The translations under genes were made by a program, and so were the position numbers. Of a stretch of DNA of 64,000 bases, positions 21,408 through 24,328 are shown piece after piece. The notes under the pieces are model-generated. The model did no database searches. It saw only the letters and a list, made by a program, of their open reading frames with translations, and was not told where the DNA came from. This stretch comes from Ignavibacteria bacterium (lineage in GTDB: Bacteria; Bacteroidota; Ignavibacteria; UBA10030; SZUA-254), in contig JACOSY010000013.1 in NCBI GenBank assembly GCA_016178595.1, positions 153,181-217,180 of the forward strand, written 5' to 3'. Every line of letters begins with the position of its first letter. Position 1 is the first letter of the stretch.

Positions 21408-22547
21408 TTAGTTCGATGAAGCTTCGGCGGCACCGGCAACTTTCTGCGCCGAGCCGAGACTTTCCGAAGCGAAATCAAAACTTTTCTCCCCTCGTTCCAG
21501 GCTGAGCAATGCCTCCTTTCTGCGAAGCCCGCCGCCGTAACCGCCAAGCTCGCCATTCTTGTTGACGACGCGGTGACAGGGGATGACGATTGCAATGCGG
21601 TTCATCCCGTTTGCCGTACCTACTGCCCTGACTGCATTCGGCGAGCCGATCCTCTTCGCGATGTCTTCGTACGATGTCGTCATGCCGTAGGGAATCTTCA
21701 GCAGCTCATTCCAGACTTGCTGCTGGAACGGACTTCCCGGATAGATGAGTTGTATCGAAAATTTCCTTCGATTACCTTCGAAGTACTCGTGCAATTCATC
21801 GTTCAATTGCTGGATGTGTTTGTTGCTTCCCGGAACGATCGCACACTTGAAATGCCGGCGTAGTGTCGTCACTTGTGCCTCCAGCATACGCCGGTCGGTA
21901 AATTCGAGAAAACAAATTCCACGGGAATTTGCGCCTGCAATCAACGGTCCGAGCGGACTCTCGATCCACGCGGCGACGATGCATTCCGTATCGCGGCTCT
22001 TTCCCGGCGGCGTGCCGAAGGTTTTCACGAACGCATCGCGGAAGCCGCTGTGAGAATTGTATCCGAAACCAAGCGCAACGTCGTCGAGATCTTCACCGAG
22101 CCGGATCTGTTCCAGCGATTTGCCGAGTCGTCTGCCGCGGCAGTACGCCTGAAACGTCATGCCGTAATTCTTGAGGAAATATCGCCGTGCCCGTGCGGGA
22201 TCGATCTCCATCGCACGAACATCGGCATCGGTGAGTCTCACCGTGGGATCGTTGTCAATTGTTGCAAGAAGTTTCGCGACCCACTCCGGTGGCGTGCCGT
22301 TTGGCTGAAGAGGCCGGCAGCGCTTGCACGGGCGGTAGCCGGCGAAGATCGCTTCACGCGGCGAGGCGTAGTACTCGACGTTCTTCGGCTCCGGTTTCCG
22401 CGCCTGACACGATGGCTTGCAAAAGATCCCGGTCGTGCGGACGGCGAGAATGAAGATGCCATCGTACGACGAATCGCTCTGTCTGTATGCGCGCTGCATT
22501 TCGGAAATGGGCGGAAGAGTTTGTGTTTGCATTGATCGGTCTTTCAT
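21408..22547 (-). CDS. ada: Bifunctional transcriptional activator / O6-methylguanine methyltransferase Ada
   Basis: GIFCKPSC...RPCKRC Zn site, AraC-type HTH, IPCHRV active site. Confidence 0.95.
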   Translation of the reverse strand: MKDRSMQTQTLPPISEMQRAYRQSDSSYDGIFILAVRTTGIFCKPSCQARKPEPKNVEYYASPREAIFAGYRPCKRCRPLQPNGTPPEWVAKLLATIDNDPTVRLTDADVRAMEIDPARARRYFLKNYGMTFQAYCRGRRLGKSLEQIRLGEDLDDVALGFGYNSHSGFRDAFVKTFGTPPGKSRDTECIVAAWIESPLGPLIAGANSRGICFLEFTDRRMLEAQVTTLRRHFKCAIVPGSNKHIQQLNDELHEYFEGNRRKFSIQLIYPGSPFQQQVWNELLKIPYGMTTSYEDIAKRIGSPNAVRAVGTANGMNRIAIVIPCHRVVNKNGELGGYGGGLRRKEALLSLERGEKSFDFASESLGSAQKVAGAAEASSN

Positions 22548-22715
22548 TGTATGATACCATCAATATAATGGATTGACGAGAAAGACTCCACCGAAAAATG
22601 GACGGGGAAGTTGGTGGTCGGGACTGGAGAATGTAAGTAGTCTAATGCTAAACCAGCCTCTTCACAGAAGGGCGTTACGAAAAAGAGTCAAACATACCTG
22701 CGCTTGTTAACGAAG

Positions 22716-22814
22716 TCATCCGCCTGAAGAGCTTGGAGGATTCTGTGTGGATGTTGGCTTAGGACGAGGCGGAGGTTTCGGCGGAGGATTTGGAGCACCA
22801 GTCTTTACACCCAT
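22716..22814 (-). CDS. Unannotated 32-aa proline-rich peptide
   Basis: MGVKTGAPNPPPKPPPRPKPTSTQNPPSSSGG*; AGGAG RBS; 22 nt after the SLATT-like stop. Confidence 0.55.
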   Translation of the reverse strand: MGVKTGAPNPPPKPPPRPKPTSTQNPPSSSGG

Positions 22815-22836
22815 TTTCGTGTTCTCCTATATTAGT

Positions 22837-23277
22837 CTAAGTGTTCTGCAATCGCTTGTTCAATGTCTCTTGAACTAGACGATAGACCCGCTTCGTAAGA
22901 AATGGGTCTACCTTTGTGACCTGATAAGCATCTGCGAATCGTTTGCGTAGAATACCCAGCGACTTACTGTATTCGTCTATGGAAAAGTCAGGAAAAAATC
23001 TCATTTGATTAAGAAAACTTTCTATCTCGATTCGAAGAGAACTAAACTGACTCCGGGCTGATCCCTCATCGGTTAGCTTCCGGGAGACGTCGAGAGCCTT
23101 GTGAACGATCGCCAAAAGCGCTCCAACGCTTGCCAGAAGGACCCATACAAGTTTGTAATCAGGGTTATTCCAAAGTGTCCATCCAGAGATCGCAGACCCC
23201 GAGGTTGTAAGAGCTAGCATTACCTTTGAGATCTCGTCGAACCGTTGCCACCGCAACACTATCCTTTCCGCCAGTAA
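22837..23277 (-). pseudogene. 3' part of an interrupted SLATT-like two-TM gene
   Basis: LLAERIVLRWQRFDEISK, two hydrophobic segments and a helical tail; begins exactly at the TT of the attC crossover. Confidence 0.8.
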
Positions 23278-23401
23278 CGTTTAGCAAAACACCGCAGCAC
23301 TTTTGCGAGCTATAAACGATCCATTTTCCGCGAGCAAAAGTGTTGAGCGCCAACAATAATTCATATCAAAAGATGGAGCGTCGGTGTTTTGCTTGTTATG
23401 C
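23272..23401 (-). mobile_element. Integron attC site
   Basis: R'' GCATAAC overlapping the HNH stop; arms AGCAAAACACCG/CGGTGTTTTGCT; inner CACTTTTGC/GCAAAAGTG; R' GTT at 23278. Confidence 0.85.
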
Positions 23402-23979
23402 GCCGCTGCCGCCGTGTGATTTGTAGCTTGCCAGAAACCTTTCAATCTCAGTTCGTAGTGCCCGAACTTTACCGAGAAGAATCTCGTACTGTTGATTCTC
23501 TTCCTTGGAGAGGCGAGATGTGAGAGGTCTTGGTTGATATCCAAAGGACTTCACGTAACTTTTGAGTTTGTTTATCCGCTCATCCAAGTCTTGGACGCCA
23601 CGAGACCGTGGAGACTTCGGAGCGTTTCCTAACATCCACTTTTCAAAATGCGTGTGCTGTTTGGAGTCGTCGCACGGCTGGCAAGCTGGAACAATATTGC
23701 CGATGACGGTTTCTCCACCTTCTTTGAGTGGAGTAAGGTGATCCCATCTCTCTGGTTCGGCACTACCACAGAAGACACATTCCTCTTTACCGTCATTGAA
23801 AAAGAATCGCTTGACCTTCTCGGCTTCTTCTTTAGCCAAATCGGCTCGTGGAGAGTCCGTCGGCAAGGGAACGCTCGATCATTGAGAAGGCAATGCTAAG
23901 CCCACCGTCTGGTGGAAAGTTCGGGTCACGCATACAGTCTCCTCAATCATTTAGAAATGAAGGCGGCAGTGGCGTATAA
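23278..23979 (-). mobile_element. Integron gene cassette (702 bp) inserted inside a gene
   Basis: Cassette start GTTATACGCCACTGCCGCC is 17/19 complementary to GGCGGCAGCGGCGCATAAC at R''; excision at G|TT restores the host ORF. Confidence 0.85.
23396..23933 (-). pseudogene. HNH endonuclease with apparent one-base frameshift
   Basis: CVFC..WDH..GNIVPACQPC; GAGGAG-ATG at 23933 opens a 33-aa ORF that stops at 23832, one base out of frame with the HNH body. Confidence 0.7.
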
Positions 23980-24051
23980 CTCCTGGAAGTACGTGTCGTA
24001 ATAGGTCTTCCATGTTGCTTCCCATAATTCGTCACGCGGATCAAAATCCAA
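23980..24051 (-). pseudogene. 5' part of the interrupted SLATT-like gene
   Basis: TTG start after GGAGGACGAGG; MDFDPRDELWEATWKTYYDTYFQE joins in frame to 23277. Confidence 0.8.
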
Positions 24052-24100
24052 GGTTCCTCGTCCTCCGGAGTTAAAATCGCTTTGATTGACTTACCTAAGT

Positions 24101-24129
24101 AATGTACAACTAGTTTCAATTACAGTCAA
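24101..24129 (-). promoter_or_regulatory. Sigma70 promoter of the SLATT-like locus
   Basis: TTGACT-N17-TACATT, same hexamers as the rplU promoter in this window. Confidence 0.65.
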
Positions 24130-24172
24130 GATAAGATCAAAATCTCGACTACCGCGGAATCAATTCTTCTCG

Positions 24173-24328
24173 TCAACATTCATTCTTCACCCACACCGTC
24201 TTTACATTCACGAACTCACGGATGCCGGCGACGCTCAGCTCGCGCCCGTAATCGGAATTCTTCACGCTGCCGAATGGAAGCCGTGGATCGGAGGCAACCA
24301 TTCCGTTGATGAACGCCTGTCCCGCTTC
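24173..24328 (-). pseudogene. C-terminal remnant of an aldehyde (succinate-semialdehyde-type) dehydrogenase
   Basis: [47 protein letters not shown]; rest of the gene absent. Confidence 0.85.

Follow-up and report, generated by a model that had tools for sequence, protein, structure and literature searches.

Experiments and a few resistance plasmids have shown that cassettes can insert outside integrons. Loot et al. (10.1101/2022.09.11.507474) describe insertion at genome sites with a GWT crossover and report that RefSeq genomes contain single attC sites by the thousands, and small plasmids are on record in which a dfrA14 cassette occupies a secondary site in strA (PMC4500777). The integrases of integrons are held to owe their single-strand recombination to the I2 helix (PMC4792948, PMC7790495), and complete integrons have been reported in Ignavibacteriae with IntegronFinder (PMC9024848). 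Here we analyze a stretch of 64,000 nucleotides (the window) from an uncultured groundwater bacterium of the Ignavibacteria, in whose chromosome a short insert splits a gene. We consider it about 85% probable that a circular integron-type cassette, consisting of an HNH endonuclease gene and a 134-nt attC, was inserted at a secondary site in a SLATT-like gene. The type of event is already known. What the locus adds is an array of the same attC family in the same genome, beside a recombinase without the IntI-specific domain, together with a target that resembles attI and a cargo gene in decay. It is a clean natural case on an environmental chromosome, with both junctions, uninterrupted orthologues and a likely source array.

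The closest parallels are the attC × attG/SALIN events as Loot et al. present them: there as here, a lone cassette lies far from an integrase, the crossover is G-W-T, the cassette is co-oriented with the host promoter, and the host locus is altered. As in SALINs, the 223-kb contig with the insert (C15) has one attC and no recombinase match, the NCBIfam integron-integrase model TIGR02249 having found nothing on it. The attG targets described in that work are unlike att sites, whereas the target here resembles the attI core of its own family. The system used there was E. coli with IntI1, whereas ours is an environmental member of the Ignavibacteria with a recombinase that lacks the IntI-specific domain. 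Finally, the CRGM motif given in the attG paper for positions 6-9 is absent here, where GGCG is found instead. The dfrA14 cassette in strA, as its report describes it, is likewise a natural single cassette that splits a gene away from integrons; it is of class 1 type and carries an intact, selected resistance gene on enterobacterial plasmids, whereas the present cassette has a frameshifted HNH gene and lies on a chromosome.

The insert occupies positions 23278..23979 on the minus strand (702 bp, GC content 0.48) and is single copy by a genome-wide sequence search. Read on that strand, the left junction is ...TTC CAG GAG|TTATACGCCACTGCCGCC (G at 23980, T at 23979) and the right junction ...GCTAAACG|TTA CTG GCG GAA (G at 23278, T at 23277), the bar marking the crossover. 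The insertion is exact. Joining 24051-23980 to 23277-22837 by script gave 513 nt, i.e., 170 codons plus a stop, with TTG as the start codon. An earlier sequence-only reading had proposed these junctions and coordinates, the restored 170-aa ORF upon deletion of 23278-23979, and an integron-type cassette within a gene. All of the junction letters are present as it gave them, the ORF was reproduced, and the cassette was borne out; overall, what it observed was confirmed and how it interpreted the observation was supported in part. The placement of the crossover at G|TT is taken from integron chemistry. The junction is ambiguous over four bases, GTTA (left copy at 23977..23980, minus strand, in which 23980 is the G of the host and 23979-23977 the TTA of the cassette), since insert and left flank both close with a G, and insert and right flank both open with TTA. 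Placing the crossover at G|TT is accordingly the canonical choice and not a unique one.

As the genome is a metagenome-assembled draft, the interruption might be an assembly chimera or, alternatively, a self-splicing intron, and the gene would then really be intact. We give these possibilities practically no credence. Contigs of 31-40 kb from the assemblies of three runs span 22700-24300 with 0 differences and 0 gaps from the genome, although the three runs may be the source samples and hence not independent of it. Regarding introns, Rfam matched no family in the window at gathering thresholds, group I and group II included, and an intron of either group was also rejected on account of the gene and attC that the insert carries. 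An element of the IS200/IS605 kind was rejected too; we found neither TnpA/TnpB nor end hairpins of that type.

The host gene is split after codon 24 and is knocked out by the insertion. Its 5' fragment (23980..24051, minus strand) has the TTG start and codons 1-24, and at present this frame reads 10 codons into the cassette before a stop at 23946-23948; the 3' fragment (22837..23277, minus strand) holds codons 25-170 and the stop. That both pieces belonged to one gene is indicated by their homologues, which are full length and colinear across the junction, as a check suggested in the sequence-only reading had anticipated. The N terminus matches those of the proteins P0002 and P0003 and of genes in two relatives (G058 and G052). 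With the 3' fragment as the query, a word-indexed search returned four proteins from 97 candidates, and that of the window itself was among the four; P0002, of 171 aa, and P0003, a partial record of 130 aa, are colinear across the junction, and P0004 matches at the start and from residue 45 onward and differs around the junction, probably by a frame error in that record. An exhaustive search gave 319 representative proteins at E <= 0.001, mostly of 170-185 aa and aligned from their first residues. Within the order, full-length copies (residues 1-170, no stops) were found in 2 of 276 other genomes, and the copy of this genome (G000) is in two pieces. The codons at the site are CAA GAG GTT CTT and CAA GAA GTG CTA in those two genomes and CAG GAG | TTA CTG in ours. 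The empty-site form is thus known through orthologues only, i.e., uninterrupted homologous genes. Empty-site DNA of the same strain was not found in the DNA of 60 relatives or in the run contigs; the search in the relatives matched attC copies and a conserved aldehyde dehydrogenase end, and left the host gene unmatched. The joint across the insert appeared in no contig of four runs, which is uninformative either way because contigs drop rare variants.

Judged from its sequence, the host gene appears to be a small gene of ca. 170 codons for a SLATT-like membrane protein, with a weak and sub-threshold likeness to SLATT_4. The 3' fragment scores 13.1 bits against the Pfam model (cut-off, 27) and P0002 18.1 bits against the NCBIfam one (cut-off, 55). 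A SLATT_4 match at E <= 0.01 was present in 6 of the 52 members of the host family and in 16-33% of the members of its nearest Atlas clusters; a profile search of solved structures with the family gave nothing below E = 0.1. The gene had been called a candidate defence gene knocked out by the cassette. The knock-out stands; the defence status, with a sub-threshold SLATT_4 likeness behind it, is a lead and no finding. At one locus of a relative (L100, G058:C85:5438-8947), the intact homologue lies between a protein whose HPD motif is J-domain-like and a P-loop ATPase, a neighborhood that would fit a conflict-system setting; at a locus of another relative (L101), the neighbors are different. In the window, a 32-codon proline-rich ORF (22716-22814, minus strand) is found directly downstream of the split gene. 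On the upstream side, an aldehyde dehydrogenase gene survives just as its final 42 codons (24173-24301, minus strand), with DNA 70-84% identical to that of relatives, one of which (G007) has the full gene of 499 codons. By this comparison, the chromosome upstream of the split gene has undergone rearrangement.

The cargo is a single gene, coding for an HNH endonuclease, and it is broken. The gene start (23832..23933, minus strand), with an RBS-like GAGGAG 6 nt before the ATG, runs for 33 codons to a premature stop, and the remainder (23396..23866, minus strand) is a 156-codon ORF from a TTG in the +1 frame, with its TAA stop within the R'' box of the attC. Pfam matched this remainder with HNH_5 (28.6 bits; cut-off, 27.5) and HNH (27.9 bits; cut-off, 21.4). 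Its closest homologues, P0006 (73% identical) and P0007 (67%), both begin with MRDPNFP, and an N terminus of this type is encoded from the ATG at 23933, in the other frame, up to the stop after codon 33. Compared with these two proteins, the +1 frameshift comes right after codon 33, near 23832-23837, and its letters are identical in the three run-level assemblies. Programmed +1 frameshifting was considered and rejected for lack of a slippery site able to re-pair. The frameshift makes a functional product, or useful expression, doubtful, and the event was therefore probably neutral or a loss, and no gain. It had also been proposed that the insertion placed the incoming gene under the promoter of the host. 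The orientation fits this idea, and upstream of the host gene there is a sigma-70-like match (24101..24129, minus strand; TTGACT, 17 nt, TACATT), which is at chance level, with two such consensus matches found in the region versus 1.6 expected; it is the frameshift that speaks against a functional product.

Relatives of the HNH gene in 277 genomes of the order were limited to motif-level matches. At 80 metagenome loci with HNH genes 35-54% identical, we found no attC of the family described below, nor was an HNH homologue found in other cassettes with that attC family. Separately, a 228-nt contig (X5) from a freshwater sediment run of another study matches the HNH gene at window positions 23559-23786 with three differences, so that a near relative of the cargo gene is present in a second habitat.

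The attC lies at 23272..23413 on the minus strand. It comprises an extended R'' flank (23413-23395) that contains the R'' box GCATAAC (23401-23395), the L''/L' stem, a branched inner stem, and the R' box G|TTACTG (23278-23272). The R' box is a hybrid, with the G from the cassette and TTACTG from the target, and the original R' tail now opens the cassette. The predicted fold has a z of -2.9; of 200 shuffles, none equals it on the coding strand and three do so or better on the other. Searches with BLAST and nhmmer first brought up relatives of this site on C55, another contig of the genome, and elsewhere. In an alignment of the 12 full genomic copies, there is no variation at the C of AAC or at the TT of GTT, and the L stem measures 12 bp. 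Compensatory changes affect 19 of the 27 predicted pairs, in support of the attC identity that the sequence-only reading had proposed. The textbook R'' consensus is RYYYAAC, and that of this family, RCATAAC over the 12 copies, differs at the third position. With RNA parameters as a proxy, the bottom strand folds better in 11 of the 12 sites; the spacers are asymmetric (1 nt versus 4 nt).

A covariance model made from the 12 copies found 14 full sites in the genome: six on C55, one on C15, and seven dispersed (C4, C18, C20, C44 with two, C10, and C27). The C15 site is the best match, at 137.7 bits, and is itself among the training sequences; it is the single attC that the model detects on that contig. 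Eight partial matches at E <= 0.1 were reported by nhmmer, two of them, on C55, being halves of one long site that the model counts as full, and the others lying on C55 (near 33.8 and 34.8 kb), C53, C40, C2, C23, and C4. The attC therefore belongs to the family that fills the C55 array. Its closest relatives, 84-87% identical, are in genomes of other families, and the array of its own genome is at 82%, so that the interrupted allele or the cassette may come from elsewhere.

The left boundary of the insert agrees with a circular precursor. The 5' end of the cassette (23962..23979, minus strand) is complementary to its own R'' flank: the G plus the first 18 bases of the insert pair at 17 of 19 positions with the 19 nt that end in the AAC of R''. 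The next best complementarity in 4 kb upstream is 12/19, followed by 11/19, and the 17/19 figure of the sequence-only reading can thus be upheld against a background of at most 12/19. In a circular form built by script, the attC gains an outer stem of 19-20 bp in which G-T pairing on the bottom strand takes the place of the two mismatches, and its hairpin is ca. 22-33 kcal/mol more stable than that of the inserted site (again with RNA parameters as a proxy). Two cassettes of the C55 array obey the same boundary rule (18/19 and 16/19); for the seven dispersed sites and four of the six full array sites, complementarity reached at most 13/19. The coincidence of the boundaries with the R' crossover of the attC and with this complementary 5' end, in the manner of array cassettes, also bears on an insertion without any tyrosine recombinase, by homing of the HNH endonuclease or by illegitimate recombination at the GTTA microhomology. 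The GTTA repeat at the junction and a nuclease as cargo would both suit such a route. However, apart from the boundaries, the HNH gene is broken and the insert has no terminal inverted repeats, transposase or intron-model match, and we regard this route as highly improbable.

A likely source of a cassette of this family is an integron-like platform on C55 (C55:27478-38466, loci L009 and L002), with a recombinase gene and six full and two truncated attC sites on the same strand. The six full sites are 0.7-2.1 kb apart. The recombinase is a 393-codon ORF directly upstream of the array and in the same orientation. The sequence-only reading had found no intI or attI; this remains true for the window and fails for the genome, in which the IntI-like recombinase of C55 stands beside an array of the same attC family. 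The recombinase is the best TIGR02249 match of the genome (244.9 bits), below the cut-off of 265, and it lacks the IntI-specific domain, so that by either mark it falls outside canonical integrons. Among solved structures, the closest to it is IntI4 of Vibrio (2a3v); the match falls into two pieces, and a stretch of 65 residues in IntI4 is represented by 25 in the C55 enzyme. Aligned with three canonical IntI of the order, four short recombinases (that of C55 and three others, all from Ignavibacteria) are without three segments (ca. 39 residues, including ALxRKYPNA) and keep the catalytic residues. C55-type arrays are like integrons in their homogeneous attC of ca. 125-150 nt, in cassettes of a single ORF, and, in relatives, in a tyrosine recombinase beside an attI. 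They differ in the orientation of the recombinase gene, which is that of the cassettes, and in ca. 39 missing residues, among them the ALxRKYPNA that the canonical IntI of the order has. By the IntI criterion, such arrays would be filed as CALINs. The HNH locus has the same organization as their cassettes, one ORF followed by an attC, and its site family is the one arrayed beside the recombinase.

The pairing of this recombinase with this attC family extends to relatives. We collected 36 loci encoding relatives of the C55 recombinase, 16 of the Ignavibacteria type and 20 distant. All 49 attC matches at these loci are downstream of the recombinase and co-oriented with it. Of the 16 Ignavibacteria-type loci, 10 contain these matches and the remaining six end within 190 nt of the gene, i.e., the pairing is present in 10 out of 10 that have downstream DNA; the 20 distant loci had no attC of the family. 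The same arrangement was seen in five relatives that were scanned whole (G045, G052, G016, G060, and G009), and in G045 all 13 attC matches form one array behind the recombinase.

A canonical IntI could have catalyzed the same event, encoded in an unassembled part of the genome, in an ancestor, or in the donor of the allele. Genes for such enzymes, scoring 411-485 bits, occur in 11 of 61 sampled genomes of the order; this genome is 96.9% complete in 61 contigs, with three dispersed attC sites within ca. 5 kb of contig ends (C18, C20, and C10); and in model systems, IntI is reported to insert cassettes at GWT genome sites (10.1101/2022.09.11.507474). Against this, none of the 11 canonical IntI loci of relatives (100,943 bases) has this attC family around it, although most of these loci are contig ends and three are covered on both sides. 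The attC family is always behind the short recombinase, and the target mimics the attI core found behind that same enzyme. We regard a canonical IntI as the less likely catalyst.

The target had been described as a bare GTT. This did not hold up, for it resembles the attI core of relatives. In eight relatives, the first cassette begins 53-285 nt past the recombinase gene, with an R'' complementarity of 16-18/19 at its start in six of them and an indel that breaks the match in the other two. Their attI consists of a conserved palindrome followed by a core that ends in ...TTACAGATG|TTA, and five more loci have the same site by likeness. From these sites, a position weight matrix (PWM; 16 nt plus TTA) was derived with either the 8 validated sites or all 13. 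The rebuilt target (the 16 nt before the crossover, 23980..23995, minus strand, plus the TTA at 23277-23275) ranks 19th with 8 sites and 100th with 13 among the 97,153 GTT sites of the genome, ranks that are supportive and not decisive since the likeness was noticed before the PWM test. The genome's own recombinase-proximal site has a negative PWM score, and it shares a 9-mer with the target (P = 0.0044). An inverted repeat of 4 bp that surrounds the crossover point of the target was dropped as too short to carry weight.

We also took 23 attC sites that are off-array or first of a cluster in four relatives. Nine left junctions were resolved at >= 15/19. Five of these nine are in the top 0.2% of GTT sites and one is in the top 1.3%; the other three, which score at 0.19, are not attI-like and adjoin an attC-like element of another kind. 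In our genome, the top PWM site among all GTT is C4:38646, and it is itself a cassette left junction, where the start of the insert is 19/20 complementary to the next R'' flank (counted by hand). It belongs to a second off-array insert (C4:38646-41887, locus L011) of 3,241 bp with two cassettes, one of whose attC sites is truncated. This insert was rejected as another gene interruption; its joined flanks restore no ORF, so that it looks intergenic, and it sits upstream of a nitroreductase-like gene.

The event could have proceeded as follows. The folded attC of the circular HNH cassette would recombine with a double-stranded secondary site inside the host gene, chosen because it mimics the attI core of the C55-type integron family. 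The crossover would occur at G|TT with the exchange of one strand, and the product would be resolved by replication, as in integrons. The catalyst would be the family's own IntI-like recombinase, without the IntI-specific domain. We see an even chance that the IntI-like recombinase of Ignavibacteria, devoid of I2/ALxRKYPNA, is a working integrase that acts on attC at G|TT and on an attI core of roughly GCGTnnTTACAGnnG|TTA, and that it inserts cassettes into chance copies of this core in genes. If so, the locus is an in vivo footprint of such activity, and the IntI domain held to be essential is unneeded for attC recombination. Our literature search, confined to journals outside subscription, found no account of attC arrays beside integrases without the IntI-specific domain. 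The locus offers a defined substrate pair for such enzymes, one attC and one 19-nt target, and it also bears on whether attI likeness steers off-array insertion. Should both the domain-less integron chemistry and the steering by attI be true, many CALINs have an overlooked integrase and integron-type gene capture is broader than the IntI family.

The C55 platform itself has some unusual features. A canonical palindromic attI core is absent from this contig, with no site of >= 12 bits, and an attC-like element follows the recombinase instead. The recombinase ORF overruns its usual end by 69 codons and enters a hairpin-rich element of ca. 130 nt ending in ...CGCGCGACG|TTA. The copy of the recombinase may be impaired, and the platform may have been rearranged. 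The element is found three times on C55 (minus strand; near 37450-37312, 34790-34650, and 31620-31514), with one copy at the end of the recombinase ORF, to which it is fused, and two within the array. One of the copies closes an ORF-less unit of ca. 240 nt that starts with TTCCGCAGCC..., a start that is likewise seen after the attI of a relative (L042). In G016, cassettes at three dispersed places are preceded by a similar ending, and at a fourth place by a looser variant. The element may be a second type of attC, carried by an ORF-less cassette. In addition, a different tyrosine recombinase was detected on C23 (C23:19714-22804), in a region that also has an attI-like site at 22231. The sequence following this site is matched by the R'' flank of a truncated attC at 22770-22804. 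This locus is possibly a decayed second platform.
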